Source of the DNA: Escherichia coli O127:H6 str. E2348/69
GTDB lineage: Bacteria > Pseudomonadota > Gammaproteobacteria > Enterobacterales > Enterobacteriaceae
Reading direction: 5' to 3' (one strand)
DNA length: 64,000 bases
Assembly (NCBI RefSeq): GCF_000026545.1
Contig: NC_011601.1
In this document: piece after piece, positions 2,936-62,645 of the stretch
Layout of the letters: every line of letters begins with the position of its first letter
How positions within the stretch are numbered: the first letter of the stretch is position 1
Position numbers and translations under genes: made by a program
Notes under the pieces: model-generated
Told to the model about the DNA's origin: nothing
Databases searched by the model: none
The model's input: only the letters and a program-made list of their open reading frames with translations

Positions 2936-3196
2936 TTACTTATAAATTACCGCAGTACCGCTTAATTTATTGTTGTTGGTGGCAGAAGTGATGCTGTATC
3001 CACTGGCACCGGCCGCCGCGGCTTTCTCAGCCAGTTTCGCTTCCAGGGCATCGAGGGTGGATGCGCCATCGGCAGAAACCACGCCGATTTTATTCATGTA
3101 CTGTGCCTGGGATGCCGTTACCGGTTCCGCCGCGAACACACCAAATGACAGAGTTGAAAGAGCCATAGCAGCAACAACAGTATTGATAGTTTTCAT
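2936..3196 (-). CDS. ybiJ: DUF1471 periplasmic protein (secreted, signal peptide)
   Basis: 86 aa; N-terminal signal peptide; C-terminal ...GTAVIYK shared with the paralog mcbA. Confidence 0.9.
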   Translation of the reverse strand: MKTINTVVAAMALSTLSFGVFAAEPVTASQAQYMNKIGVVSADGASTLDALEAKLAEKAAAAGASGYSITSATNNNKLSGTAVIYK

Positions 3197-3460
3197 AATT
3201 AATCTCTCGCAGGTGATTTTTGTATAAGTGACGTTGTTTCGTCGATGTGATGAGTATCACGTTTTTTTACGAGAGATAAAATCGAAGAGAATTGACCGCC
3301 TTGTTCAAATAAATTGATTGATATCTAACATACTGATAAACCATTTATTTGTTGTACTTATGGACTTGTTTTATACCGCGTGGCAGTCACGGTAGCGTTA
3401 AAGGCACGGAATGCCACGCAAAATACAAATTATACTCGCTATACATCCCGCCAGTTGTAG

Positions 3461-3727
3461 TTAACGTAACTGGCTGTCTTTCGAACCTCTGCGATTATAT
3501 CCTGTATAAGCTGGTTTTTGTAAATCTTTCTCCTGCTGACAATGAATGCATAAGCGCACGCCAGGAATGGCTTCCCGACGGGCCTGCGGGATAGGGGCAC
3601 CGCACTCTTCACATTCATACAGGCTTTCGCCACGCGGAATTTCACCCCGAGCGCGGGCAATCGCATCTTCAATTGTACTGTTGATCTGTTCGTTGACGGC
3701 GTCATCATTAGCCCAACCGGATGCCAT
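3461..3727 (-). CDS. ybiI: DksA/TraR-family C4-type zinc-finger protein
   Basis: 88 aa; CxxC...CxxC motif (CEECGAPIP...LCIHCQ). Confidence 0.9.
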   Translation of the reverse strand: MASGWANDDAVNEQINSTIEDAIARARGEIPRGESLYECEECGAPIPQARREAIPGVRLCIHCQQEKDLQKPAYTGYNRRGSKDSQLR

Positions 3728-3800: not shown

Positions 3801-4478
3801 TCAGATCTCCGACCATTCCCGCAGCAGATTATGATAAAGATTGAGCAGCGACAGGATCTCTTCACTTTCGCCGTAGTGGCTTTTCAGCGACTGAATATTG
3901 TTGTCCAGTTCAAACAGCATGGCGCGCTTTTTATCATCACGGATCATCGACTGGATCCACATAAATGATGCCACTCGCACGCCGCGGGTTACGGGTGTCA
4001 CGCAATGCAGGCTGCTGGAGGGATACAACACCAGATCGCCTGCCGGGAGTTTTACCCGATGTTGCCCGAAGGTGTCATTAACGACCAGTTCGCCGCCGTC
4101 GTAGCTTTCTGGATCGCTTAAAAACAGCGTGGCAGAAAGGTCAGTGCGCATCCAGCCGTTTTGTGGATGGCTGCGTACTGCGCCATCCACATGAAAACCA
4201 TAGGTTTCATTGTTCTGATAGCGATTAAACAGCGGCGTGGAAAGGGTACGCGGCAAGGCCGCGGCAAAGAACAAAGCATGTTGGTTAACCGCGTTCAGCA
4301 CCTCATTTTGCAGGGCGGCGTACAGGGCGCTGCGGGTGTCTACTTGTTGATTGTTCTTAACTTGCGCACCTTGTGCGCCGGTGGTGACGCGCCCATCCAC
4401 CCATTCGGCTTGTTCCAGTTGTTCGCGAAAACGGGCGACGTCCTGTGGCGATAACACGCCGGGAATGTGGTACATCAT
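3801..4478 (-). CDS. ybiX: PKHD-type Fe(II)/2-oxoglutarate-dependent hydroxylase
   Basis: Track ORF is 237 aa; start trimmed to the internal Met (MMYHIPGVL...) to give the expected 225 aa; lies downstream of fiu in the same orientation. Confidence 0.85.
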
Positions 4479-4519: not shown

Positions 4520-6802
4520 TCAGAAATGCATATTGGCCGTGAGCAGGAAGGTTCTTGGCTCGCCCGGGTGATAACGGTAGCCGCTCTTGTTGATTGAGGC
4601 GACGTAATCGGTATCAAACAGGTTGTAGACGTTTAGCTGGAAGTCGAGATTGCGATTAACCCGATACCCCAGTTTGGCATCGGCGACCCAGTAACCTTCG
4701 GTAAACGCTGGCGTTCCCACCGCGCCGTCTGAACCTTTATGCATACTGCCGATATACCGTGCGCCCGCACCAACAGAAATATCATCGGTTGCCTGATACT
4801 GGCTCCATAAGGTGAAGGCGTGTTCCGGGGTATACGGCAGCGATGAGGAACCATCCTGGGCAACATCTTTGCCGTTTTTGATAGTTGCTTTTTGCTGGGT
4901 ATAGCCGCCAATCATCTGCCATGCGGGGGTGATATTCCCGGCCACGGATATCTCGTAACCTTCGACACGTTTCTTACCATATTGCGAATAAGTCCCGTCA
5001 TCATTTTGCTCAACTTCATTTTCAATATCAGTACGGAACAGCGCGGCGGTAAGTAGCAGGCGTTTATCCAGAACCTGCCATTTGGTGCCAATCTCGCTGG
5101 TGTTGGCTTTTTGCGGTTTAAAATCGGTGCGGTTGGCACTGTTACCGCTGCCAGACTGCGCAAGGGCGAAGTTGTTGCCGCCCGGCGGCTGCTGGGAAAC
5201 GGCATAGTTAATATAGACATTGCCGTTTTCCGTCAGGTGATACAGCGCCCCGGCTTTCCAGTTCACCAGATTGCCCGACTTGGCGGTGTCGACGGTGGTG
5301 ACCGGAGAACCTTTTGCCACGCTAGCAGGGCAGGTGATGGCACCGCGCCCGCTGCCGCCGCAGGCGGTGGCACTGTCATATTCAGTATGATAATTATCCA
5401 GACGGATCCCACCGTTCAGCTCAAAATCACGGGTGATTTGCAGCGTATCGAAGGCATAAATTGCGAAGGTATCCGTCTGACCATTGGCGTTTGCGCCGTT
5501 GCGCGTCAGGCCGCCGGGATGAATGCTGCTGTCAGGATGATAAATATTTACCGCCGGTAACGTCACCGGATTAACGCCATAGTTAGTCTGTGTTTCGCGG
5601 GTAAATTCCACGCCGGTACTGACATCATGACCGATAGCGCCGGTATAGAACGTCGAGGTCAGGTTGGTCTGGTTGGTGAGAATTTTGTTACTCACATCTT
5701 TGGTATTCGCCGTGCGTGACCACGTCCAGCTATTCACATCGCTGGTGGGCTGGGTAATATTCGACGCTCCACCCATAATCGCCGTCATCAGGTAATCCTG
5801 CTTTACGCGCGACCAACGCGTAGTGTTGCGAATGGTGGTGTTATCGTTGATGTCGTGCTCAAAACGCATGGTAGCGGTGTCGGTGGTCGAATCGTCGTAA
5901 TCGGAATCCGTGCCGTAAAAGTTATGAGTATCAACTTTTCCGGAATGATTCAGGGCCGCTGTTCCCGCAGATGGGGCAGAATAACCCGGTAAACCGATGG
6001 TCGGAATGCCGCCGTCTGGCGTGTTGTGCTGGGTGACATGCAGATAATTAAGATACAAACGATTCGCTGTACCAAGGCCAAAAGCGACAGAAGGGGCGAC
6101 GCCGTAACGCTCATTTTTGACTTTGTTGCGTCCGGCATCGTGCGTTTTTTCGCCCATTACATTCAGGCGCACCGCAGTGGTATCACCAATGACCTGATTG
6201 ACGTCCAGCGTGCCGCGGCGGAACCAGGCGCTGCCAATACTGGCGGAGGCGTCAATGCCGGAATCATTGCGCGGCTGTTTGCTGATCATATTGATCGAGC
6301 CTGTCGGTGCGCTGCGCCCGTAGTCGGTGCCGGACGGCCCTTTAATTACTTCGACCTGCTCGGTATTGAAGGTGTCGCGCGAGACGCTGCCGATATCGCG
6401 AATGCCATCGATATAAATACTGTTAGAGGTATCGGCACCGCGCATATAAATGGCGTCGCCAGTGGTGGAGTTACCGTTCTCACCCGCAAAAAACGCACCC
6501 ACGCCGGGGACGTTTTTGAGCGCGTCGGTAAGGTTGGTTGCACCCTGATCTTTAATCACTTGTTCAGAAATCACTGTCATCGTGCGGGTAGTATCCGCTA
6601 CCGGACGCGAGAATTTCGGATCGGCAGATTTTTGTGGCGCATAAAGCGAAGGCGTTGATGCTTCGACAACCAGCGTGTCATCCGCGTTAGCTTGCCCTTC
6701 GGCAGCGAGTGCCTGTGCCACAGGCGTAATACCAATACAAAGACCGGCAAAGAACGTGAGCGAATGAAATTGTCTGGCAGGGAAATTGCGATTGTTTTCC
6801 AT
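4520..6802 (-). CDS. fiu: TonB-dependent catecholate siderophore outer-membrane receptor
   Basis: 760 aa; signal peptide; C-terminal ...NMHF with terminal Phe typical of TonB-dependent barrels. Confidence 0.95.
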
Positions 6803-6906
6803 TTTGCAGGTGACTTTTTCTTATATGGTGAAATTTTCACTGTCACGAGAAAGCATCTCTGCGGATGCGATGCCACTGTTAATCCCGTGATAGCGTCTGT
6901 GCAAGT

Positions 6907-6931
6907 GATAATAATTTTGATAAGCATTATC
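6907..6931 (-). promoter_or_regulatory. Fur box in the fiu promoter
   Basis: GATAATAATTTTGATAAGCATTATC resembles the Fur consensus GATAATGATAATCATTATC; sits about 100 bp upstream of the fiu start. Confidence 0.6.
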
Positions 6932-7066
6932 ACTTGGCGCGATTTTCTATCACCCATTGCGCGAAAAAGAAATACATTTATTTACATTGCGTTCATATTT
7001 GATGTTTTTTGCTTACAAATTGGACGAAAACTGCATCCAGAGGCGAATGCAGTTACGTTGGTGGGG

Positions 7067-7327
7067 TTATTTGTAGATGATTGCAGTACCGAACATCTGG
7101 TCATTTCCGCCTGCGGAATTAATGACATAACCTTTCGCGCCTTGTTCGCGCGCTTTTTCTGCCAGTTTATCCTCCAGATCGCTTAGGTTTGATGCGCCAG
7201 TTGCCGAAACGGTACCGGCGGGCCGTAGCTGACCGCTGTCCAGGTTACTCATCGGTTGCGCGGCATAAGCCGTGAGAGAGATTCCGCTCAGGACGGTGGC
7301 AATCAGTAGTGTGAGGCACTTTTTCAT
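7067..7327 (-). CDS. mcbA: DUF1471 periplasmic protein, colanic-acid/biofilm regulator
   Basis: Start trimmed to MKKCLTLL... (86 aa); signal peptide; C-terminal ...GTAIIYK paralogous to ybiJ. Confidence 0.85.
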   Translation of the reverse strand: MKKCLTLLIATVLSGISLTAYAAQPMSNLDSGQLRPAGTVSATGASNLSDLEDKLAEKAREQGAKGYVINSAGGNDQMFGTAIIYK

Positions 7328-13537: not shown

Positions 13538-14215
<678 letters not shown>

Positions 14216-14340
14216 TTATTTGCTCGCCAGGAATTTTCGGAATAAATATGCTTTTGCATAATTCGATATATAAAGACGATGTAGAGGAAAAGTAGCGAGA
14301 AAATCTGCATGGTTATGCATAACCATGCAGAAATGTAAAT

Positions 14341-16111: not shown

Positions 16112-16818
16112 AAAAAATCCGCCTCTCGGGGCGGATTTTTTTGTGCACAGAAAACCCCCAGCTAGGCTGGGGGTTCCGGAAAGCTTTCAGCTTTGAGCCA
16201 GTTATTAAAACCCCTTTTGATTTGTTAAAACACCTTGCGGTCTGGCAACTGCAAGTGTCAAACAAGAAATCAAAAGGGGGTCCCAATGGGGAACGAAAAG
16301 AGCTTAGCGCACACCCGATGGAACTGTAAATATCACATAGTATTTGCGCCAAAATACCGAAGACAGGTGTTCTACAGAGAGAAGCGTAGAGCAATAGGCT
16401 GTATTTTGAGAAAGCTGTGTGAGTGGAAAAGTGTACGGATTCTGGAAGCTGAATGCTGTGCAGATCATATCCATATGCTTGTGGAGATCCCGCCCAAAAT
16501 GAGCGTATCCGGCTTTATGGGATATCTGAAAGGGAAAAGCAGTCTGATGCTTTACGAGCAGTTTGGTGATTTGAAATTCAAGTACAGGAACAGGGAGTTC
16601 TGGTGCAGAGGGTATTACGTCGATACGGTGGGTAAGAACACGGCGAAGATACAGGATTACATAAAGCACCAGCTTGAAGAGGATAAAATGGGAGAGCAGT
16701 TATCGATTCCCTATCCGGGCAGCCCGTTTACGGGCCGTAAGTAACGAAGTTGGATGCAAATGTCAGATCGTGTGCGCCTGTTAGGGCGCGGCTGGTAAGA
16801 GAGCCTTATAGGCGCATT
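16112..16818 (+). mobile_element. IS200 insertion sequence (IS200/IS605 family); boundaries approximate
   Basis: Y1 transposase gene flanked by the two characteristic structures: an A-tract/GC-hairpin/T-tract at 16112-16146 plus palindrome acccccagc-tag-gctgggggt, and a stem (ccccttttgattt / aaatcaaaagggg) that overlaps the tnpA RBS. A ~707 bp element with tnpA at ~175-633 fits these coordinates. Confidence 0.8.
16286..16744 (+). CDS. tnpA: IS200 transposase TnpA (HuH Y1 transposase)
   Basis: 152 aa from MGNEKSLAHTRWNCKYHIVFAPKYRR...; HxH motif (DHIHML) and near-identity to recalled IS200 TnpA. Confidence 0.9.
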   Translation: MGNEKSLAHTRWNCKYHIVFAPKYRRQVFYREKRRAIGCILRKLCEWKSVRILEAECCADHIHMLVEIPPKMSVSGFMGYLKGKSSLMLYEQFGDLKFKYRNREFWCRGYYVDTVGKNTAKIQDYIKHQLEEDKMGEQLSIPYPGSPFTGRK

Positions 16819-23397: not shown

Positions 23398-23440
23398 GTT
23401 ATTATCAGTAGCCCTGATATGGTCAGGGCTACTGAAACTG

Positions 23441-23560
23441 ATGACAAACGCAAGATTGCCTGGTGCGCTACGCTTATCAGGCCTGGTAGTGTATCGCAAT
23501 ATATTGAATTTTCATGATTTTGTATGCCGAATAAGGCGGTTACGCCGTATCCGGCATAAT
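23441..23560. repeat. REP palindromic elements
   Basis: gcctggtgcgctacgcttatcaggcc and gccgaataaggcggttacgccgtatccggca REP-like units after ybiT. Confidence 0.6.
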
Positions 23561-23596
23561 GACATGCACTTTCTCAATAAACTGAATTGGCGATAA

Positions 23597-37360: not shown

Positions 37361-39709
37361 ATGCTGAGTTTATACGAAAAGATAAAGATAAGGCTGATAA
37401 TTTTATTTTTATTGGCAGCACTGTCATTTATTGGTCTTTTTTTCATCATTAACTATCAACTGGTATCGGAACGCGCGGTAAAACGTGCCGATAGCCGCTT
37501 TGAACTTATTCAGAAAAACGTTGGCTATTTCTTTAAAGATATTGAACGTTCGGCCCTGACATTAAAGGACTCACTATATTTATTAAAAAATACAGAGGAG
37601 ATTCAACGCGCCGTAATTCTGAAAATGGAAATGATGCCATTTTTAGACTCGGTGGGACTGGTACTTGATGATAATAAATATTATCTCTTTTCGCGGAGGG
37701 CGAATGATAAAATCGTTGTTTATCATCAGGAACAAGTAAATGGACCGCTTGTCGACGAGTCAGGGCGGGTTATTTTTGCCGATTTTAACCCATCGAAACG
37801 ACCGTGGTCGATGGCTTCAGATGACTCTAACAACAGCTGGAACCCGGCATACAATTGCTTTGATCGTCCGGGTAAAAAATGTATCTCTTTTACGCTACAC
37901 ATCAACGGCAAAGATCATGATTTGTTAGCAGTAGATAAAATTCATGTCGATTTAAACTGGCGATATCTGAACGAGTATCTTGATCAAATCAGCGCTAATG
38001 ATGAAGTTCTATTTTTAAAGCAAGGTCATGAGATCATTGCTAAGAATCAACTCGCTCGTGAAAAATTGATTATTTATAATAGCGAAGGTAATTATAATAT
38101 TATTGATTCTGTCGATACGGAATATATTGAAAAAACATCAGCGGTGCCAAACAACGCATTATTCGAAATCTATTTTTATTATCCTGGTGGTAATTTATTG
38201 AACGCATCAGATAAACTTTTTTATCTGCCGTTTGCTTTCATTATTATCGTATTGCTGGTGGTTTATTTAATGACCACTCGAGTTTTCCGTCGGCAATTTT
38301 CTGAAATGACCGAACTGGTTAATACGCTGGCGTTTTTGCCTGACTCTACGGATCAAATCGAGGCCCTGAAGATTCGTGAAGGCGATGCGAAAGAGATTAT
38401 CAGTATCAAAAATTCGATCGCGGAAATGAAAGATGCTGAAATTGAACGGGCAAATAAATTGCTCTCGCTGATCTCTTACGATCAGGAAAGCGGTTTTATT
38501 AAAAATATGGCGATTATTGAGTCCAACAATAATCAGTATCTGGCTGTGGGGATCATCAAACTGTGTGGTCTGGAAGCTGTGGAAGCGGTGTTTGGTGTTG
38601 ATGAACGCAATAAAATCGTCAGGAAATTGTGTCAGCGAATTGCCGAGAAATATGCGCAATGCTGCGATATCGTGACATTTAATGCCGATCTCTATTTACT
38701 CCTGTGCCGGGAAAATGTACAGACGTTTACCCGTAAGATAGCGACGGTAAACGATTTTGACAGCAGTTTTGGCTACTGCAATCTGCGCATCCATAAGTCT
38801 GCTATTTGTGAACCTTTGCAGGGGGAAAACGCCTGGAGTTACGCAGAAAAGCTGAAACTGGCGATTTCCAGTATCCGCAACCATATGTTCTCAGAGTTTA
38901 TTTTCTGTGATGATGCGAAACTCAACGAAATAGAAGAGAATATCTGGATTGCGCGTAATATTCGCCATGCAATGGAAATTGGCGAACTATTCCTGGTCTA
39001 TCAACCGATTGTTGATATTAACACCCGCACCATTTTGGGCGCGGAGGCGTTGTGCCGTTGGGTGTCTGCGGAGCGGGGGATTATTTCACCGCTGAAGTTC
39101 ATTACCATTGCTGAAGATATCGGGTTTATCAATGAGCTGGGCTATCAAATTATTAAAACCGCGATGGGTGAATTCAGACATTTTAGCGAGCGTGCGGTCC
39201 TGAAGGACGGTTTCTTACTGCATATTAATGTTTCGCCCTGGCAGTTAAACGAACCACACTTTCATGAGCGTTTTACTACCATCATGAAAGAAAATGGCCT
39301 GAAGGCGAACAGCCTTTGTGTTGAGATCACTGAAACCGTGATCGAGCGAATTAATGAACATTTCTATCTCAATATTGAACAACTGCGTAAACAAGGGGTA
39401 CGGGTATCGATTGATGACTTTGGCACCGGTTTGTCAAACCTGAAACGTTTTTATGAAATGAATCCAGACAGTATAAAGGTGGATTCGCAATTTACCGGCG
39501 ATATTTTCGGTACTGCGGGAAAAATTGTGCGCATTATTTTCGATCTGGCACGCTATAACCGGATCCCGGTGATTGCGGAAGGCGTAGAGAGCGAAGACGT
39601 TGCGCGTGAATTAATCAAATTAGGATGTGTTCAGGCTCAGGGGTATCTGTACCAGAAACCCATGCCATTCTCCGCCTGGGATAAAAGTGGAAAATTAGTA
39701 AAAGAGTAG
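37361..39709 (+). CDS. pdeI: c-di-GMP phosphodiesterase (EAL domain; periplasmic sensor, TM)
   Basis: 782 aa; N-terminal TM/periplasmic region and C-terminal EAL domain. Confidence 0.9.
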
Positions 39710-52445: not shown

Positions 52446-53498
52446 TTACGGGGTAATGCCAACCGCTGCCGCCACTTTGTCGCCACTTGGCAGCGTTGCC
52501 AGAGGATTGAAACGGAGCGCCGTTTCCAGATGATCCGGTGCCAGATGTGCGTAACGCATAGTCATTTTTATATCGTGGTGTCCGAGAATTTTTTGTAAAG
52601 CCAGAATGTTTCCACCCGACATCATGAAGTGCGCCGCAAACGTATGGCGCAGAACGTGTGTGGGTTGACCGCGAGGGAGCACGATAGACGTTTTTTCCAT
52701 CACGGATAAAAATTGAAAATAGCAGTCTGTGAAGAAATTGAACCCATCAAGCGCCATGATCTCTTCGTAAAGCTCTTTACTGATAGGGATGCTTCTGTTT
52801 TTCTTCCCCTTCGCTCTTACAAAGGTAATTCGGTATTTGGTCACCTGTGAGCGGGTAAGATTTACGTCTTCTCGCCAGCGTGCGCCTGTGCTTAAGCATA
52901 TCTTAACTACCAGTGCCAGAATTGGGTCCTGACGTTTGCAATCAGCTAGTAATTCAACAATCTGCTCATGGGTAAGCCATGCCATCTCTTTTTCTGCGAT
53001 GGTGAATTTTCGCATGTTCTCCAGTGGGTTCGGATACGACCATTCGCCCAGGCGGGATAGTTCGCTAAAAACACTACTTAGATAGCTTTGCTCCAGGTTA
53101 ATGGTGACCGGGCTTGCTCCTTTCTTCCATTTCTCACTGAAGTAGATCTCACCTGTCAGGCGTTTATCTCGATAGTGGGCAAACATTTTAGAGGTTAGAT
53201 CAGTTGCAAGGGGATTGCCCAGAGCGTCAACCATCAGCAGCAATTTGTCATAGACATGCTGCCCAGCAGTCAGAGATTTACCATGTAGTTTGAACCATAG
53301 CTCAACCACGTCTTTCAGTGTTCGACGATCCACTGATTCACCCAGCCAGGGCTTTGCTTCGGTTTCTTCCATCGTGTGACGCTCAAAAGCCAGTGCTTCG
53401 CCTTTGGTGGCGAATTGTTTACGCACACGACGCCCACTACGTCCGGCGGGGTAACATTCGCAAAGCCATTTTCCTGTGGTGAGTTTTCGTACTGCCAT
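52446..53498 (-). CDS. int: phage integrase (tyrosine recombinase, P2/186 type)
   Basis: 350 aa; N-terminus MAVRKLTTGKWLCECYPAGRSGRRVRKQFATKGEALAFE and catalytic-domain motifs (LSTGARW, LRHTFAAHFMMSGGNILALQKILGH, MRYAHLAP) match recalled 186 Int. Confidence 0.9.
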   Translation of the reverse strand: MAVRKLTTGKWLCECYPAGRSGRRVRKQFATKGEALAFERHTMEETEAKPWLGESVDRRTLKDVVELWFKLHGKSLTAGQHVYDKLLLMVDALGNPLATDLTSKMFAHYRDKRLTGEIYFSEKWKKGASPVTINLEQSYLSSVFSELSRLGEWSYPNPLENMRKFTIAEKEMAWLTHEQIVELLADCKRQDPILALVVKICLSTGARWREDVNLTRSQVTKYRITFVRAKGKKNRSIPISKELYEEIMALDGFNFFTDCYFQFLSVMEKTSIVLPRGQPTHVLRHTFAAHFMMSGGNILALQKILGHHDIKMTMRYAHLAPDHLETALRFNPLATLPSGDKVAAAVGITP

Positions 53499-53584
53499 AA
53501 TAAAGCCCTCATATCAGAGGGCTAAATTTAACTGTATGTTTGACCAGTGGTCAATGTATGGTTTAGTTTATTCAAACAATGCTT

Positions 53585-55102
53585 TTAATCAAATGATGTG
53601 GCCAGTTCAATTAATTCAATGTAATTATGTAAGGCATAAAAAGATGTATTCAGACCATTCTCTATAAGGGCTCCTTGCAAATACTTTATAGCTGTATCAC
53701 CATCAATAGGGCCTTGTTGAGATATAATCATTAGTGAATTTTGCCCATTGTTTTTTATACTTGATTTAAGCATGTTTATATTATTAATAAAATACAATGC
53801 AACATCTAAGTAATTTATTAATGTTAAATTTATTTTGGGCTCAATCTGTGAGATGAATAATCTACTGCTCGCCGTTCTATAGATATAATTGACACCTATT
53901 CTTTGCTGATTTGTATCAAGATTTAATTCAAGGATGGCTTGAGAAACACCTTTTAAATTGGAGCTTTGCTTTATCGAATCAGTGAAACGTTGTGCTGCAT
54001 TTCTTCGACCAATTAGTCCATCTATAATTTGACGTTCCTTATCATATATAATCATTAGCGAAATTATAAAAATATAATCTACTTTCTTTTTGACTAAATC
54101 AGATTTAAGAATGTCTATTAACCTTTCAGTATTTCGGATTGAGTCTCTTAGATTTAACCCAAATGCTTCAAATACGTTGGAAATATTTATTGAAAAGTCT
54201 TCTAATGTTGCTGTTAGTGGGTGTGTTTTTGATGTGATATTTTCAAAATCGGTACCAATATAATCACCAACAACACCATTAATTAAATCTTTAAGCTCAG
54301 GTTGTTTTAAAGTAAATCTTCTATGAAAAAAACGGCCTAAATAGTCATTTGCGGAAAAATCATTACCGTAAACATTCTTGATTGAATGTTGTAATTGATC
54401 TGTGTCAGTAGCAATAATAAAGACAAAATTTTTAATATCGAATATATGTTTAACAATCTCTAAAAGAGAAATTGCATAATCTGGCCTGCATCTGTCTAAT
54501 TCATCTATAAAGATAAATATAGGACATGAAAAACTATTTTCATATGCCAACCTAGACCATAACGTTAGTTCTTTTTTTAATACCTTAATGCTCTTCAGTT
54601 TTTCCTGGTGTTCCTTCAGCATTATTAATGAGGCTTCTTTGGCTATATCACCTACGTTATCTACTCCTGCATAAGTCTTGATTAGGCCAGATATGATTTC
54701 AGGTAGAACACCTTTTGTAAAGCGTCCGATAGCATGGCCGCTTTGTATCAATCGAGCATCAAGTTTTCCTGCATATGTTTGCAATTGTTGTGACAAAGAA
54801 GAAAAAAGGGTTAAAAATGCATCATCAGAAAAGTCTTGCTTCCAGGCATCAATGTAAACGCATGGGTGTGCATCTTTTATTGAGTTATAAAATCTCTTTA
54901 TGAAAAAACTTTTACCAGCTCCCCATTCTGCATTAAGGTTGATTACCGTGTTGTTCTTTTGCCCCTTTTCCTTAAGATAAAAATATAGATATTCTGCATA
55001 GTGTCTCCGATTAAGTTTGTCTTTGGAAAGAATTTCCTCTTCGTCGTCTAATATAAAGGTAGTTTCTTCATCCCAGTTCCAATTACAATCACCACATTTC
55101 AC
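53585..55102 (-). CDS. KAP-family P-loop NTPase (prophage cargo; candidate anti-phage protein)
   Basis: 505 aa; GTG start with GGAGA RBS; Walker A AEWGAGKS (res 58-65) and Walker B IFIFIDELDRC typical of KAP NTPases; long Asn/Ile/Lys-rich C-terminal region; AT-rich. Confidence 0.7.
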   Translation of the reverse strand: MKCGDCNWNWDEETTFILDDEEEILSKDKLNRRHYAEYLYFYLKEKGQKNNTVINLNAEWGAGKSFFIKRFYNSIKDAHPCVYIDAWKQDFSDDAFLTLFSSLSQQLQTYAGKLDARLIQSGHAIGRFTKGVLPEIISGLIKTYAGVDNVGDIAKEASLIMLKEHQEKLKSIKVLKKELTLWSRLAYENSFSCPIFIFIDELDRCRPDYAISLLEIVKHIFDIKNFVFIIATDTDQLQHSIKNVYGNDFSANDYLGRFFHRRFTLKQPELKDLINGVVGDYIGTDFENITSKTHPLTATLEDFSINISNVFEAFGLNLRDSIRNTERLIDILKSDLVKKKVDYIFIISLMIIYDKERQIIDGLIGRRNAAQRFTDSIKQSSNLKGVSQAILELNLDTNQQRIGVNYIYRTASSRLFISQIEPKINLTLINYLDVALYFINNINMLKSSIKNNGQNSLMIISQQGPIDGDTAIKYLQGALIENGLNTSFYALHNYIELIELATSFD

Positions 55103-55127
55103 TATGAAGTCTCCATGAAAAATTTAC

Positions 55128-56051
55128 TTAATGTAAACAACTTATAATAACTTTTGCAATAAACTCAATGTCTGTAAGCGAACATTCAAAAGAGTGATTT
55201 TGGGATGAAATATAAACTCGTCCTTTAGGTAGTCGAGTTATCATTCTAAATGAATTCTCTCCATCAATATTTACTAGCCACTTACCATCATGTACATCTT
55301 TAAAACCCATTTCACATATTAATTCAGAGTCTTCGGTAGATACTACGAATGCATTTTTTAAATTGGAAGGTAGAAAGCATGGGTCAAATAAATATGAGCC
55401 ATCATTTATTAACTTGCCATTGATTAATACTTTTTTCACTAATGTTAAAGTATCTTTATTTTTTGCGTTTTTCATTTCTCCTGTACCAAATGAAATCCAT
55501 TCAATAGAATGGCCCGTTTCTATTGCACACTGCAAAACCCAGTCTGCAGGAAAAATGTCACGCATGTATCGTGTGGCTAATGTGCTTTTTGAAATACCTA
55601 GGTGATCAGCTAATGCTTGGCGCGTTTTGTAACCGTAAGCCTCGACAATTCGTTCTATTGTTGCCTTACCCCCTCGGTTAAAATTCATGAGTTTTTCATT
55701 ATCGAACTTTATAGTGGGAATGTATACTTCATTGCAAAGGCCATTAACGGCATGTTTTTCAGAATATTGCTCTGATGAAGGAGCAGTATCTGAACCAAGA
55801 ACTAACCATTCAATTGATGCTCCTGTTTCTATGGAACATATAACAACCCAATCTGCAGGAAAGGTATTACGTGCATATCTGTTGGCCATAGTACTTTGGG
55901 AAATACCTAGATGATTACATAATGCCTGTCGTGACTTGAAGCCATAGGCTAGGAGTATACGCTCAATAACTTTTTGCCCTCCACGATTCTGCATAACTAT
56001 TGCTTTCAGATCGTTTTTGATATGGCTAAATTTTAATTTTTGAGTTGACAT
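55128..56051 (-). CDS. CI-like repressor paralog with tandemly duplicated N-terminal DNA-binding domain
   Basis: 307 aa; residues ~20-85 and ~120-190 are two copies of the domain (IERxxxAYGxKxRQALxxHLGISxSTxAxRYxRxxFPAxWVxxCxxETGxSxxWL) found once in the adjacent CI; C-terminal domain is paralogous to the CI C-terminus. Start could alternatively be the Met at residue 20. Confidence 0.75.
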   Translation of the reverse strand: MSTQKLKFSHIKNDLKAIVMQNRGGQKVIERILLAYGFKSRQALCNHLGISQSTMANRYARNTFPADWVVICSIETGASIEWLVLGSDTAPSSEQYSEKHAVNGLCNEVYIPTIKFDNEKLMNFNRGGKATIERIVEAYGYKTRQALADHLGISKSTLATRYMRDIFPADWVLQCAIETGHSIEWISFGTGEMKNAKNKDTLTLVKKVLINGKLINDGSYLFDPCFLPSNLKNAFVVSTEDSELICEMGFKDVHDGKWLVNIDGENSFRMITRLPKGRVYISSQNHSFECSLTDIEFIAKVIISCLH

Positions 56052-56101
56052 ATTTTTTACACCACAACAAATGCTTTACCAAGCATAAAAACATTCCTAT
56101 A

Positions 56102-56677
56102 TTACTCAAAGTACTTAACTGTTATGCTTATAATTTTTCCAATAATTTCGATTTCTTCTTTTTTACATTCGAAAGCCCTATTTCCACCTTCAACTAAGAT
56201 TCTTCCACCAGGTAAACGAGTGATATCGCGGATTGTTACTTCGGCATCAATACTTATTACCCATTTGCCGTCACGAATATCGTTAAACTCTTTATCGCAA
56301 ATAAAAACGGAATTGTTATCGGTGATTACAAACGGATTTTTGAGCGTAGATGGTAGAAATTCTTTATCGAAAATATAAAAACCATCTTCCTGCAAGGTTC
56401 CATCAGATAATACATATTTAACGACTTCCATAGTATTTGTATTACCTGAAGTTTGCTTTGAACCATGTCCGGTCGTGAGCCAGTTAAGCGAGGCGCCCGT
56501 TTCAAGTGCGCACTGGATTACCCATTCAGCAGGGAATGAGTCACGCATATAGCGTGTGGCGAGAGTACTTTTAGAGATTCCTAAGTGATCGCACAACGCC
56601 TGTCGAGTCTTGAAGCCATATGCTTCTACCATGCGCTCTATAGCGCCTCGTCCGCCTTTCTCCAAACTCATGGTCAC
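56102..56677 (-). CDS. cI: prophage immunity repressor CI (186 type)
   Basis: 191 aa; divergent from the apl/cII operon; N-terminal domain resembles recalled 186 CI (...AYGF...CALETGA..W..TG); start may be the ATG at 56671 instead. Confidence 0.75.
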   Translation of the reverse strand: MTMSLEKGGRGAIERMVEAYGFKTRQALCDHLGISKSTLATRYMRDSFPAEWVIQCALETGASLNWLTTGHGSKQTSGNTNTMEVVKYVLSDGTLQEDGFYIFDKEFLPSTLKNPFVITDNNSVFICDKEFNDIRDGKWVISIDAEVTIRDITRLPGGRILVEGGNRAFECKKEEIEIIGKIISITVKYFE

Positions 56678-56796
56678 TCCAAGTGAACTTTTGTCTTGAC
56701 GATTTCATTATGCGATCGCATGTTTATGGTGTTCACAAAATGCAAACGATCCGTATTCGTCCTGATTAATCAACATTAAACGAGGAATGTTGCATC
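56678..56796. promoter_or_regulatory. prophage immunity switch region (early lytic promoter and candidate CI operators)
   Basis: Divergent intergenic region with TTGACG -35-like hexamer (56696-56701), perfect 12-bp palindrome ATGCGATCGCAT (56710-56721), and flanking inverted repeat GTGAAC...GTTCAC (56683-56688 / 56731-56736). Confidence 0.45.
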
Positions 56797-57018
56797 ATGA
56801 AACCTAACATTTCAATCACTCTTACCACGCCTCATGTGACTATTGAACGTTATAGCGAGCTGACAGGGCTATCCATCGATACTATCAATGACATGTTGGC
56901 TGATGGACGTCTTATCCGTCACCGTCTGCGGAAAGATAAAAAACGCGAAAAAGTGATGATCAACATAGCAGCCATGACCGTTGATGCGCTTTCAGAATGC
57001 AATCTAAACCTTAATTAG
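56797..57018 (+). CDS. Apl/Cox-like HTH excisionase-regulator
   Basis: 73 aa; first gene of the rightward operon with GAGGAA RBS; position matches 186 apl / P2 cox. Confidence 0.55.
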
Positions 57019-57050
57019 TTCGATTCTGAAATACATCAGAGGCATTGACC

Positions 57051-57560
57051 ATGTTTGATTACCAAGTTTCCAAACACCCGCATTTTGATGAAGCCTGTAG
57101 AGCTTTTGCACTTCGTCACAATATGGCGAAGCTGGCAGAACGTGCAGGAATGAATGTCCAGACTCTGCGAAACAAACTCAACCCAGATCAACCGCATCAG
57201 CTCAATGCGCCAGAAATCTGGCTGCTTACCGATCTGACTGAAGATTCAACGCTGGTAGATGGCTTTCTGGCACAGATTCACTGCCTGCCATGTGTACCGA
57301 TTAATGAGGTGGCAAAAGAGAAACTGCCGCATTACGTCATGAGTGCAACTGCAGAGATAGGGCGTGTCGCGGCAGGTGCGGTTTCTGGCGATGTAAAAAC
57401 CAGTGCAGGCCGTCGTGATGCGATCAGCAGCATTAACTCTGTTACACGACTGATGGCGCTGGCTGCTGTTTCATTGCAGGCCCGTTTACAGGCTAATCCT
57501 GCGATGGCGAGTGCAGTTGATACCGTGACTGGCCTCGGTGCTTCATTCGGTTTGCTGTGA
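57051..57560 (+). CDS. cII: CII-like lysogeny establishment regulator (186 type)
   Basis: Start trimmed to [45 protein letters not shown]...; closely matches recalled 186 CII over its full length. Confidence 0.85.
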
Positions 57561-57567
57561 GGTGCTT

Positions 57568-57768
57568 ATGCTGACGAAAGAACCATCATTTGCATCGCTG
57601 CTGGTAAAACAAAGTCCGGCAATGCACTACGGTCACGGCTGGATCATGGGTGAGGATGGTAAACGCTGGCATCCGTGCCGTTCACAAGATGAATTGCTGG
57701 CAGAACTATCAACGAAAAAACGGGGGAACCAATGGCTATTGAAGGCGCTGCGGCGACTGTTCCATTAA
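57568..57768 (+). CDS. hypothetical phage early protein
   Basis: 66 aa from MLTKEPSF...; sits where 186 carries fil; no recognisable motif. Confidence 0.4.
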   Translation: MLTKEPSFASLLVKQSPAMHYGHGWIMGEDGKRWHPCRSQDELLAELSTKKRGNQWLLKALRRLFH

Positions 57769-58073
57769 GCCCCGGTGAACGCCTGAATGGACTTAATCAT
57801 ATTGCGGAATTAAGAGCGAAAGTTTTTGGCCTGAATATTGAGTCAGAGCTTGAGCGGTTTATTAAAGATATGCGTGATCCACGGGATATCAATAATGAAC
57901 AAAATAAACGGGCACTGGCTGCCATATTCTTTATGGCAAAAATTCCAGCTGAACGTCATAGCATCAGCATTAATGAGCTGACCACTGACGAAAAGCGGGA
58001 GCTGATTAAAGCAATGAATCATTTTCGTGCAGTGGTGAGCTTATTTCCCAGACGGCTAACCATGCCGAATTAA
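57732..58073 (+). CDS. hypothetical phage early protein
   Basis: 113 aa ORF in the early operon; start uncertain (overlaps previous gene by 37 nt). Confidence 0.4.
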   Translation: MAIEGAAATVPLSPGERLNGLNHIAELRAKVFGLNIESELERFIKDMRDPRDINNEQNKRALAAIFFMAKIPAERHSISINELTTDEKRELIKAMNHFRAVVSLFPRRLTMPN

Positions 58074-58140
58074 CCAACTAATGAAATTCATGGCGTAAAC
58101 CCGCCAGGCATCCCTTTATCTAAATTCAGGAGAATTGATT

Positions 58141-58374
58141 ATGCGTAATATTGAAACCCTCACGACTAAAACCGGACCGGATGATGCAGGGCTTAATATT
58201 TTACTGACAGAGGCTCGTCTGGAAGAACGCCGGGCAAGGGCTGAAGCAATGGCAGCTCGCCTTGATAGCCTGGCGTGTCATATCACATCCCGCCAGCTAA
58301 ACCACGTCGAAGCGGCAGAACTGCTGCGTGTGACTGCTGAAGCAATCCAGAACGAAGCGCAGGAGATCCACTGA
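58141..58374 (+). CDS. hypothetical phage early protein
   Basis: 77 aa from MRNIETLTTK...; CAGGAGAA RBS 6 nt upstream; stop overlaps next start (TGATG). Confidence 0.5.
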   Translation: MRNIETLTTKTGPDDAGLNILLTEARLEERRARAEAMAARLDSLACHITSRQLNHVEAAELLRVTAEAIQNEAQEIH

Positions 58375-58601
58375 TGGCTGATGCAATGGATCTCGTACAG
58401 CAGCGCGTTGAAGAAGAACGCCAGCGTCATATCCGTGCTGCCCGCGCCAAAACGCCGGGCGTATCCCGCGTGCTTTGCATTGAGTGTGAAGCACCAATTC
58501 CGCCAGCACGACGTCGCGCCATTCCGGGTGTGCAGCTTTGCATTACCTGTCAGGAAATCGCAGAGCTGAAAGGCAAACATTACAACGGAGGTGCTGTATG
58601 A
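58374..58601 (+). CDS. phage TraR/DksA-family C4 zinc-finger protein
   Basis: 75 aa; CIECEAPIPPARRRAIPGVQLCITCQ is paralogous to chromosomal YbiI (CEECGAPIPQARREAIPGVRLCIHCQ). Confidence 0.75.
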   Translation: MADAMDLVQQRVEEERQRHIRAARAKTPGVSRVLCIECEAPIPPARRRAIPGVQLCITCQEIAELKGKHYNGGAV

Positions 58602-59455
58602 GCACCATCCTGAAATGGGCGGGTAATAAAACCGCCATTATGCCAGAACTGAAAAAATACCTTCCTGCTGGCCCGCGACTGGTTGAACCTTTCGCGGGTT
58701 CTTGTGCTGTGATGATAGAGACGGATTACCCCAGCTATCTTGTTGCGGATATTAATCCTGATTTAATCAACCTCTATAAAAAGGTTGCTGCTGATTGCGA
58801 GGCGTTTATATCTCGTGCCAGAGCTTTATTTGAGGAAGCAAACAGGGAGGTGGCTTATTACAACATAAGGCAGGAGTTTAATTACTCCACTGAAATTACT
58901 GATTTCATGAAAGCGGTATATTTCCTGTATCTCAATCGTCATGGTTACCGTGGGTTATGTCGCTATAACAAGAGCGGGCATTTCAACATTCCCTACGGGA
59001 ATTATAAAAATCCGTATTTCCCTGAAAAAGAAATTCGCAAATTTGCAGAAAAAGCCCAGCGAGCAACGTTTATCTGCGCCAGCTTTGATGAAACGCTGGC
59101 GATGTTGAAGGCGGGGGATGTGGTGTATTGCGATCCGCCTTATGACGGTACGTTTTCCGGCTATCACACTGATGGCTTCACTGAGGATGACCAGTATCAC
59201 CTGGCATCCGTTCTTGAACATCGATCATCTGAAGGTCATCCGGTCATTGTTTCTAACAGTGACACATCCCTGATTCGTTCGCTGTATCGCAATTTCACTC
59301 ACCACTACATCAAGGCAAAACGCAGCATCGGCGTGTCGGCTGGCGAGAGTAAATCTGCAACAGAAATCATTGCTGTTTCCGGGGCGCGCTGCTGGGTGGG
59401 ATTTGATCCTTCGCGTGGCGTGGATAGTTCTGCTGTGTACGAGGTGCGTGTATGA
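58598..59455 (+). CDS. dam: phage DNA adenine methyltransferase (Dam-like)
   Basis: 285 aa from [12 protein letters not shown]... with GGAGG RBS; FAGSCAV SAM-binding motif and DPPY catalytic motif. Confidence 0.85.
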
Positions 59456-61866
59456 GTCATGATGATATGAGCAACTCTAGCGGCTTTAACGAGGCCGCTG
59501 CAGCATTTTCATGGAACGGCCCGAAAAAGGCCATTAACCCTTATCTGGATCCGGCGGAAGTTGCGCCGGAGTCTGCACTTTCAAACATGATCACTCTGTA
59601 CGCTGCCGATAACGAGCAGGAACAGCTGCGCCGCGATGCACTGAGTGAGCAGGTCTGGGAGCGTTATTTCTTTAATGAATCCCGTGATCCTGTCCAGCGC
59701 GAAATGGAGCAGGATAATCTCATTAGTCGGGCAAAGCTGGCGCATGATCAGCAGCGTTTTAACCCGGACATGGTCATTCTGGCGGACGTCAGCGCCCAGC
59801 CCACCCACATCAGCAAGCCGCTGATGCAACGTATCGAATACTTCAGCAGCCTGGGCAGGCCAAAGGCTTATTCCCGCTATTTGCGTGAGACGATTAAGTC
59901 ATGTCTGGAGCGACTGGAGTATGTACGCGACAGTCAGCTATCCGCTTCTTTCCGTTTTATGGCAAGCCATCAAGGGCTTGAGGGCCTGCTGATCCTGCCT
60001 GAAATGAGTCAGGATCAGGTAAAACGCCTGTCCACCTTGGTAGCAGCGCATATGAGCATGTGTCTTGAGGCCGCTTGTGGTGATTTGTATGCCTCCGATG
60101 ACGTTAAGCCAGAAGAAATCCGCAAGACATGGGAAAAGGTGGCAGCGGAAACCCTGCGTCTGGATGTTATCCCGCCTGCGTTTGAGAAACTCCGTCGGAA
60201 AAGAAACCGCCGCAAACCCGTGCCCTATGAACTCATACCGGGTTCGCTGGCACGTATGCTTTGCGCCGACTGGTGGTATCGAAAATTGTGGAAGATACGT
60301 TGCGAATGGCGGGAAGAGCAGTTGCGTGCTGTCTGCCTGGTCAGCAAAAAAGCATCTCCCTATGTCAGCTATGAAGCAGTGACGCATAAACGTGAGCAGC
60401 GCCGCAAGTCGCTGGAGTTTTTCCGTTCTCATGAACTGGTGAACGAAGACGGCGACACGCTGGATATGGAAGACGTGGTAAACGCCAGCAGCAGCAACCC
60501 GGCGCACCGCCGCAATGAGATGATGGCCTGTGTTAAAGGTCTGGAGCTTATCGCGGAAATGCGTGGTGACTGCGCCGTTTTCTACACCATTACCTGTCCG
60601 TCACGTTTCCATTCTACGCTCAATAACGGCAGACCAAACCCAACCTGGACAAATGCGACGGTAAGACAAAGCAGCGATTATCTGGTCGGCATGTTTGCTG
60701 CATTTCGTAAGGCTATGCACAAAGCCGGGTTGCGCTGGTATGGCGTGCGGGTGGCTGAGCCGCACCATGACGGTACTGTGCACTGGCATCTCATGTGTTT
60801 CATGCGCAAAAAAGACCGCCGCGCCATTACTGCATTGTTGCGTAAGTTTGCCATCCGTGAAGACCGCGAGGAACTGGGCAATAACACGGGTCCACGCTTT
60901 AAGTCTGAGCTGATAAACCCGCGCAAAGGAACGCCGACAAGCTACATCGCGAAATACATCAGTAAGAACATTGACGGACGTGGTCTGGCTGGCGAGATCA
61001 GCAAGGAAACGGGTAAATCCCTGCGTGATAACGCCGAATACGTTAATGCCTGGGCGTCTCTGCATCGTGTTCAGCAGTTCCGCTTCTTTGGTATTCCGGG
61101 GCGTCAGGCGTACCGTGAACTTCGCTTGCTGGCTGGTCAGGCGGCAAGGCAACAGGGTGACAAAAAAGCAGGTGCGCCGGTACTGGATGACCCGCGCCTT
61201 GATGCCATCCTGGCTGCCGCTGATGCTGGCTGTTTTGCCACCTACATCATGAAGCAGGGCGGCGTACTGGTTCCCCGCAAATATCACCTTATCAGAACAG
61301 CTTATGAAATTAACGAAGAGCCGACCGCTTATGGCGATCACGGTATTCGTATTTATGGCATCTGGTCACCCATTGTACAGGGCAAGATCTGCACTCATGC
61401 AATGAAATGGAAAATGGTTCGTAAGGTCGTTGACGTTCAGGAGGCGGCAGCCGACCAGGGCGCTTGCGCCCCTTGGACTCGTGGCAATAACTGTCCCCTT
61501 GCTGAAAATTTGAACCGACAGGAGAAAGATAAATCAGCTGATGGGGACCCCAGAACGGACATTACCCGCATGGATGACAAGGAGTTACACGATTACCTGC
61601 ACAGTATGAACAAAAAGGAGCGCCGGGAACTGGCTGCAAGGTTACGTCTGGTGAAACCGAAACGGCGTAGAGACTACAAACAGCGAATTACAGACCATCA
61701 ACGACAGCAGCTCGTCTATGAACTGAAATCCAGAGGATTTGATGGCAGCGAGAAAGAGGTCGATTTACTCCTTCGCGGCGGCAGTATTCCGTCAGGAGCT
61801 GGCCTGCGTATCTTCTATCGGAACCAGCGTTTGCAGGAAGATGATAAGTGGCGGAACCTGTATTAA
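59452..61866 (+). CDS. A: phage replication initiation protein A (HuH rolling-circle endonuclease)
   Basis: 804 aa; HuH motif (VHWHLMCF) followed later by tyrosine-containing region ([10 protein letters not shown]); positional equivalent of P2/186 gene A. Confidence 0.8.
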
Positions 61867-61959
61867 TTACGCTGGTTAACAATTCGTGCTCTTAATAATA
61901 CCAGGCATATCAGGCTGATAAGCGTAAAAAAAACGTTTTACATCAGTAAGATTATTATA

Positions 61960-61979
61960 TACTGTAAATATAAACAGTG
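61960..61979 (+). promoter_or_regulatory. LexA (SOS) box
   Basis: TACTGTAAATATAAACAGTG fits CTGT-N8-ACAG, 40 bp upstream of the 62021 ORF. Confidence 0.75.
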
Positions 61980-62020
61980 GTTATACATACAGCATTGTGT
62001 GTGGTGTCATAGGAGGAAAG

Positions 62021-62209
62021 ATGCAGGACTATTTTTTGGAGTCTTTGAAGCTCCAGCGCATTGATTTTTTTCTTAAGCTTGTAGCGGCTAGTGAGTGTAG
62101 TGATGAAGAGAAGGGGCTGGCTCTGCAGTGGGTTTCTGAATTGACTGATGAACTTATGGCAAAAATCAGAAGCCACGAATACAACCGCTCAATGGATGTC
62201 ATCAGCTGA
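62021..62209 (+). CDS. SOS-controlled small protein (positional equivalent of the 186 Tum antirepressor; function unverified)
   Basis: 62 aa from MQDYFLESLK... with AGGAGG RBS; directly downstream of the LexA box. Confidence 0.5.
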   Translation: MQDYFLESLKLQRIDFFLKLVAASECSDEEKGLALQWVSELTDELMAKIRSHEYNRSMDVIS

Positions 62210-62219
62210 GGTGACTTTT

Positions 62220-62453
62220 ATGCGCATTGAAATAATGATCGATAAAGAGCAGAAGATTAGCCAGTCTACCCTGGACGCCCTTGAATCCGAGCTTTACCGC
62301 AATCTGCGCCCCCTGTATCCCAAAACGGTAATTCGCATTCGCAAAGGTAGCTCTAACGGTGTGGAACTAACCGGACTGCAACTGGATGAAGAAAGAAAAC
62401 AAGTGATGAAAATTATGCAGAAGGTGTGGGAGGACGACAGCTGGCTGCATTAA
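62220..62453 (+). CDS. DinI-family protein
   Basis: 77 aa MRIEIMIDKEQ...IMQKVWEDDSWLH resembles DinI; GAGGTG RBS. Confidence 0.75.
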   Translation: MRIEIMIDKEQKISQSTLDALESELYRNLRPLYPKTVIRIRKGSSNGVELTGLQLDEERKQVMKIMQKVWEDDSWLH

Positions 62454-62645
62454 GAAACGTTGCCCCCAGGAGGATTCATTCTGATGGGGGCTAGTTTGGG
62501 CAATGAGTGAAATAAGGCGTAAGGTGGGCGGTTATTTTGATAAGTGATCGTCCGCTTTGTGTCAGAAGCAGAAGTGGGAGTGTCTGAGACTCTCTAAAAG
62601 TTGATGATTCACTTACAAAACCATTTTCCTGATGAATGCTTACAC

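Follow-up and report, generated by a model that had tools for sequence, protein, structure and literature searches.

A 27-bp element at 6906-6932, upstream of fiu in Escherichia coli O127:H6 str. E2348/69, was identified with high confidence as the Fur operator of the fiu promoter, which silences fiu and ybiX/ybiI when iron is sufficient. This operator is already known. The identical sequence is present in another E. coli strain and the box itself holds nothing new.

The analyzed stretch of DNA, referred to as the window, comprises 64,000 nucleotides and corresponds to bases 800001-864000 of the record, so that window coordinates equal those of NZ_LT827011.1 minus 800000. The gene identities were taken from the RefSeq annotation of NZ_LT827011.1, a record which is 100% identical to the window. 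An earlier sequence-only reading of this DNA had named fiu and, downstream on the same strand, ybiX, and both the names and the orientation match the RefSeq annotation. The positions of the genes and of the elements discussed are given in Table 1.

Table 1. Genes, operator elements and predicted signals in the fiu region of the window.
Feature	Position	Strand	Description	Basis
ybiI	3461-3727	-	C4 zinc-finger protein; probably distal member of the transcription unit	Annotation
ybiX	3801-4478	-	PKHD-type (Fe2+/2-oxoglutarate) hydroxylase; second gene, co-regulated	Annotation
GC-rich stem-loop	4495-4512	-	GUGGGGC-GCAG-GCCCCAC plus UUUUU; lies between the fiu stop and the ybiX ATG	Terminator scan
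fiu	4520-6802	-	Outer-membrane receptor for catecholate siderophores (760 aa); heads the regulated unit	ORF list and RefSeq
Fur operator, 27 bp	6906-6932	-	TGATAATGCTTATCAAAATTATTATCA; encloses the 25-bp box 6907-6931	
Downstream 7-1-7 inverted repeat	6906-6920	-	TCAAAAT-T-ATTATCA, 12/14	Read from the sequence
Upstream 7-1-7 inverted repeat	6918-6932	-	TGATAAT-G-CTTATCA, 13/14 to TGATAATnATTATCA	Read from the sequence
MG1655 Fur ChIP-exo peak P24, transferred	6918-6942		Published peak interval	PMC10164565; K-12 to E2348/69 alignment without indels
Predicted −10 hexamer	6926-6931	-	GATAAT; coincides with the first Fur-box hexamer	Consensus scan
Predicted −35 hexamer	6948-6953	-	GTGATA; 16-bp spacer to the −10	Consensus scan
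Conserved upstream block	6968-6993	-	cAATGTAAATAAATGTATTTcTTTTT; outside the Fur box; candidate ArcA/other operator or UP-like element	
mcbA intrinsic terminator	7027-7054	-	Stem AACUGCAUUC...GGAUGCAGUU; 10-bp stem, 6-nt loop, then U tract	
mcbA	7067-7327	-	Gene upstream of fiu	RefSeq

Sequence and architecture of the Fur box

The Fur box (6907-6931) is located inside the 264-bp intergenic region between mcbA and fiu (40% GC), 105-129 bp upstream of the fiu ATG (6802). Its sequence is GATAATAATTTTGATAAGCATTATC on the + strand, which reads GATAATGCTTATCAAAATTATTATC in the orientation of fiu. For the evaluation of the motif, all 19-mers of the window were scored against the 19-bp Fur consensus GATAATGATAATCATTATC. 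The top 19-mer of the box, found at 6913-6931, agrees with the consensus in 15 of 19 positions. Overlapping registers with 14 of 19 matching positions were identified at 6907-6925 and, on the opposite strand, at 6913-6931. When up to three mismatches to the consensus were allowed, no site was found in the whole 64-kb window. The site had been described earlier as near-consensus; it is a genuine Fur-box match, while this wording is slightly generous for a sequence with four mismatches.

The two 7-1-7 units of the operator are offset by 12 bp and have the bases TCA in common. The outer arms (TGATAAT and ATTATCA) complement each other perfectly, which gives the element dyad symmetry. Alternatively, the operator can be read as four contiguous hexamers (GATAAT, GCTTAT, CAAAAT and TATTAT), consistent with a Fur box of at least three NATWAT hexamers. 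Both views, the hexamer array and the overlapping 7-1-7 units, are reportedly found among the Fur-box models of Escolar et al., of Baichoo and Helmann, and of Lavrrar and McIntosh.

Like the classical 19-bp Fur box, the fiu site is an array of GATAAT-like hexamers that ends in a perfect ATTATC, contains two inverted-repeat units and lies over the (predicted) core promoter of an iron-uptake gene. It differs from the classical box in its match of only 15/19 and in the 12-bp offset of the 7-1-7 units, resulting in a 27-bp operator, whereas an offset of 6 bp is implied by the consensus.

Conservation, published Fur binding and chance expectation

The mcbA-fiu intergenic regions of E2348/69 and K-12 MG1655 were found to be ~95% identical, without indels. 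No difference between the two strains was found within the 35 bp around the box, and substitutions occur close by on either side. Compared to the K-12 fiu-ybiX Fur site (PMC10164565, PMC4676285), E2348/69 has the same locus, the same box sequence and the same gene order. The difference is one of strain alone, with ~5% of the 264 intergenic positions differing, all of them outside the box. Of 5426 complete E. coli genomes, 5421 contained a 31-bp core (6904-6934), which was identical in 4670 and had one difference in 747 and two in 4; no match was obtained in the remaining 5. In contrast to this core, the whole intergenic region ranges between 94% and 100% identity across E. coli.

For the comparison across genera, a scan with the Fiu protein was carried out using one genome per species. 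It resulted in 44 loci, and the 39 with a full-length match were used. These represent nine genera, namely Escherichia, Citrobacter, Klebsiella, Raoultella, Leclercia, Silvania, Pseudocitrobacter, Enterobacter and Pantoea. In 38 of the 39 loci, a search of the 350 bp upstream of the gene placed the best Fur-like 19-mer 95-117 bp ahead of the fiu start codon. In an alignment of 21 sequences (A2), the mean identity of the box columns was 0.87, compared to 0.62 in the rest of the upstream region. The distal ATTATCA arm (6912-6906) was invariant in all 21 sequences, which come from nine genera. In loci of the Pantoea/E. ludwigii type (L025, L026, L027 and L040), the operator is exactly 6 bp, i.e., one hexamer, shorter. 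This shortened operator of 21 bp has the form TGATAAC-N7-GTTATCA with perfect outer arms and lies ~108-129 bp before the fiu ATG.

Binding of Fur to this region has been published for two K-12 strains. Gao et al. (2023; PMC10164565, supplementary file 3) reported the MG1655 ChIP-exo peak P24 at 840869-840893, assigned to fiu-ybiX with repression as the mode of regulation, and, for W3110, a peak at 842081-842093 that they linked to fiu, ybiX and ybiI. The peaks were transferred to the window using the fiu ATG as anchor (841531 in NC_000913.3 and 841953 in NC_007779.1). The MG1655 peak table uses older coordinates, and an offset of 778 was deduced from the positions of the fiu ATG and from the matching peak boundaries of MG1655 and W3110. 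The transferred MG1655 interval (Table 1) encloses the complete upstream 7-1-7 unit. The W3110 peak has a length of 13 bp and was transferred to 6930-6942, where it overlaps the box by only 3 bp. Both intervals reach ~10 bp upstream of the box and are shifted ~10-20 bp upstream of the box center.

The published expression data agree with repression by Fur. In Δfur mutants of MG1655 and W3110, the log2 fold changes were 5.5 and 10.0 for fiu, 5.2 and 7.1 for ybiX, and 3.0 and 5.3 for ybiI, respectively (PMC10164565). The upstream gene mcbA had a value of 0.4 in MG1655 and is not Fur-responsive (PMC10164565). Over nine E. coli strains the log2 fold change of fiu in Δfur ranged between 5.2 and 10.0 (PMC10164565), and the Fur core regulon common to the nine strains includes fiu. 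The fiu-ybiX locus was also listed as a known Fur target by Beauchene et al. (2015; PMC4676285), who found a fiu promoter-lacZ fusion to be repressed by Fur, more strongly under aerobic conditions. The fiu-lacZ fusion of strain H1780 serves as a standard reporter of Fur function (PMC3050691). These binding and expression data come from K-12 and other strains, none of them being E2348/69. The proposal of the sequence-only reading that fiu and the linked hydroxylase gene are repressed by Fur and iron is borne out by the derepression of fiu and ybiX in Δfur and by the ChIP-exo peaks on the site in K-12. The assay by which it was to be refuted, a fiu promoter fusion under Fur, had already been published, with the fusion repressed by Fur (PMC4676285, PMC3050691).

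The promoters of fepA and cirA, which encode other catecholate receptors, belong to the same regulon and to the same Fur-1 iModulon as fiu, and the derepression of cirA in Δfur is similar in size to that of fiu. In contrast to fepA and cirA, fiu is also followed by the hydroxylase gene ybiX, which lies behind a conserved hairpin.

The position of the ChIP-exo intervals could indicate that Fur binds mainly at an upstream site (~6933-6955) with the conserved GTGATAGAAAATC block, and that the box is conserved as part of the core promoter, i.e., the −10 and the discriminator. Both intervals end only at 6942, and that of W3110 is situated almost entirely upstream of the box. In addition, block B (AATGAGTGATAGAAA) is conserved and GATAAT serves also as the −10 hexamer. 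However, all 19-mers starting in 6920-6962 score below 11 against the Fur consensus, compared to 13-15 for several registers of the box. Conservation extends over all 27 bp and thereby to the distal ATTATCA arm, well beyond the needs of a −10, and a complete unit with 13/14 matches falls within the MG1655 interval. This explanation is considered very unlikely, and the operator at 6906-6932 is preferred as the site of Fur binding.

The second alternative is a chance Fur-like match in AT-rich intergenic DNA without a regulatory role, with fiu being controlled by iron indirectly. The score of just 15/19 and the base composition of the region (40% GC) would allow for it. In the 64-kb window, three sites with at least 15/19 were observed, whereas 0.17 were expected from dinucleotide shuffles. 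The remaining two, at 37667-37685 and 38389-38407, are both located within the coding sequence of pdeI (41% GC), and these are probably chance matches that are likely non-functional. Since two equally good matches occur in AT-rich coding sequence, the consensus score by itself is not specific. For the fiu site, on the other hand, a score of 15/19 was reached in only 0.34% of the shuffles of the 264-bp intergenic region (P ~0.003), and in 0.08% (P = 0.0008) when a second, overlapping register of at least 14/19 at a distance of 6 bp was required. No other site with at least 14/19 occurs in the 6447 bp that make up the 44 intergenic regions of the window. Together with the conservation of position and sequence over nine genera and the ChIP-exo peaks at the box in two K-12 strains, this effectively refutes a chance origin.

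It was also noted that both additional 15/19 matches fall in one gene, pdeI. A weaker match to the Fur consensus (12/19), the palindromic AATAAGAACAATTCTTATT, was observed in the region upstream of dps (14042-14340). Binding of Fur at the dps promoter was reported by Beauchene et al. (PMC4676285).

Predicted promoter and neighboring elements

On the fiu strand, the GTGATA/GATAAT pair (Table 1) was the sole sigma-70-like site within the scanned region 6700-7150. The predicted transcription start lies near 6919 and thereby inside the box. In the window and 38 loci (39 sequences in total), the −35- and −10-like hexamers are 15-18 bp apart although the spacer contains indels, and such a constant spacing across genera is consistent with a promoter. 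Degenerate forms of the −10 occur in some loci of Citrobacter (AGCAAT) and Pantoea (GATAAC). Two alternative −10 hexamers within the box, TATTAT (6913-6908) and CAAAAT, were rejected, since no −35-like hexamer was found 16-18 bp upstream of them.

Fur most likely represses fiu by blocking the −10 and the start region. In the literature searched, neither a mapped transcription start of fiu nor a Fur footprint for the E. coli fiu promoter was found and, as the −10 is degenerate in some genera, we infer this mode of repression from the overlap of the elements. The promoter hexamers, the start site and the number of Fur dimers bound are given here as predictions. Under iron sufficiency, Fe2+-loaded Fur dimers would occupy the two 7-1-7 repeats of the 27-bp element. 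This element overlaps the predicted −10 as well as the predicted start, so that RNA polymerase would be excluded and fiu would be silent. Under iron limitation, Fur without metal would leave the DNA and the unit would be transcribed.

In alignment A2, conservation upstream of fiu peaks in the 19-26-bp block AATGTAAATAAATGTATTT, which ranks above the Fur box with a mean identity of 0.89 over 6968-6986. The upstream block at 6968-6993 contains the direct repeats TGTAA and TGTAT at a distance of 10 bp. The ArcA consensus consists of TGTTA repeats 11 bp apart. Published ArcA ChIP-chip/ChIP-seq data contain peak centers at 840921 and 840928 (old coordinates), to which the authors assigned no ArcA motif. 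After transfer, these centers correspond to ~6970-6977 of the window and are located within the conserved upstream block. Binding of ArcA at the fiu promoter was also noted by Beauchene et al. (2015; PMC4676285).

That the box itself is the operator of another regulator of AT-rich DNA (ArcA, H-NS, Zur or Mur-like), with a secondary dependence on Fur, has a negligible probability: ArcA peaks do occur in the fiu promoter region and Fur repression differs between aerobic and anaerobic conditions (PMC4676285), but the ArcA peak centers lie ~50 bp upstream over a different conserved block, fiu expression was unchanged in ΔarcA (5.65 vs 5.96) in the published ArcA data set, and the GATAAT/ATTATC array is a Fur signature to which the Fur ChIP-exo and Δfur data point directly. 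The box is accordingly regarded as a Fur operator.

On its upstream side, the regulatory region is adjoined by the predicted terminator of mcbA. The 47-nt 3′ flank of mcbA (7020-7066), which contains the stem, folds with −15.4 kcal/mol (z = −4.5 compared to shuffled sequences). This terminator was not reported by a simple terminator scan. It bounds the regulatory region and shields the promoter of fiu against transcription from further upstream.

Published data name CRP as a regulator of fiu. Two candidates for a CRP site, GGTGATAGAAAATCGC and the palindrome GTGAAAATTTCAC in the 5′-UTR, were inspected by eye and rejected, as the TGTGA-N6-TCACA spacing is absent from both and the palindrome occurs in Escherichia only. 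This palindrome is perfect (GTGAAA-A-TTTCAC) and is located on the - strand at 6823-6835 in the 5′ leader of fiu, ~20-35 nt ahead of the start codon.

When the whole window was scanned with Rfam, neither the leader of fiu nor the intergenic regions matched an RNA family. At a distance from fiu, the 5′ part of an IS200C copy that lies just after ompX (16153-16744, tnpA 16286-16744) matched the STnc490 sRNA (16153-16276, 146 bits). Two further observations concern the gene content of the window. The gene ybiU is absent in E2348/69, where ybiT is followed directly by ybiV across an apparently REP-like gap of 199 bp (23398-23596); in K-12, Fur ChIP-exo and ArcA ChIP peaks have been reported at ybiT-ybiU and ybiU. 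A P2-like prophage extends from next to rcdA over 52446-64000 and carries genes for an integrase, a KAP NTPase, CI-type repressors, CII, Fil, a Dam methylase and a replication endonuclease.

The fiu-ybiX-ybiI unit

The genes fiu, ybiX and ybiI are located on the same strand, with gaps of 41 bp between fiu and ybiX and 73 bp between ybiX and ybiI. Directly downstream of fiu, ybiX was found in all 39 loci, and ybiI followed next in 34 of the 39. Neither gene has a Fur site of its own upstream, the best matches being 7/19 in the 41-bp gap and 10/19 upstream of ybiI. For W3110, the transcription unit is listed as fiu, ybiX, ybiI (PMC10164565). The common strand, the short gaps, the gene order, the joint derepression and the lack of an internal Fur site all agree with a transcription unit, for which a single RNA is predicted. 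Since ybiX and ybiI are without a Fur site of their own, they would be silenced together with fiu, and their Fur dependence is best explained by read-through from the fiu promoter.

Downstream of ybiI, the gene ybiJ (2936-3460) shows a modest derepression in Δfur, with log2 fold changes of 1.2 in MG1655 and 3.1 in W3110 (PMC10164565). The 264-bp gap upstream of ybiJ contains no good match to the Fur consensus (best 12/19). A naRNA4/REP-type element was detected near ybiJ (Rfam match 2859-2929).

The stem-loop between fiu and ybiX (Table 1) is conserved. An equivalent hairpin with compensatory changes in the stem was found in 14 of the 16 other loci that were folded. The exceptions are L015, in which the fold of the gap is a longer and different structure, and L006 (Escherichia sp. 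MOD1-EC7003), in which the stem is split by an insertion of ~170 nt. In Δfur, the RNA level of ybiX is ~5-fold below that of fiu (PMC10164565), which suggests a leaky terminator or a stabilizing 3′ hairpin. The hairpin is probably one of the two, either terminating transcription incompletely or stabilizing the 3′ end of the transcript. With such a hairpin after fiu, just a part of the transcripts would proceed into ybiX. A more tentative and rather doubtful idea is that the conserved upstream block acts as an atypical ArcA or other oxygen-responsive operator, and/or that the hairpin is an attenuator which tunes the ratio of receptor to hydroxylase.

The results are mainly confirmatory, as this regulation was already established and its operator in an EPEC strain brings no new insight. 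The base-level footprint of the operator across genera, the loss of one hexamer, the upstream block and the intergenic hairpin are of possible use for a dissection of the promoter. Fiu is an entry route for catecholate siderophores, microcins and siderophore-conjugated antibiotics such as cefiderocol. Because these antibiotics are imported by Fiu, the control of the fiu promoter by Fur and iron affects drug susceptibility.
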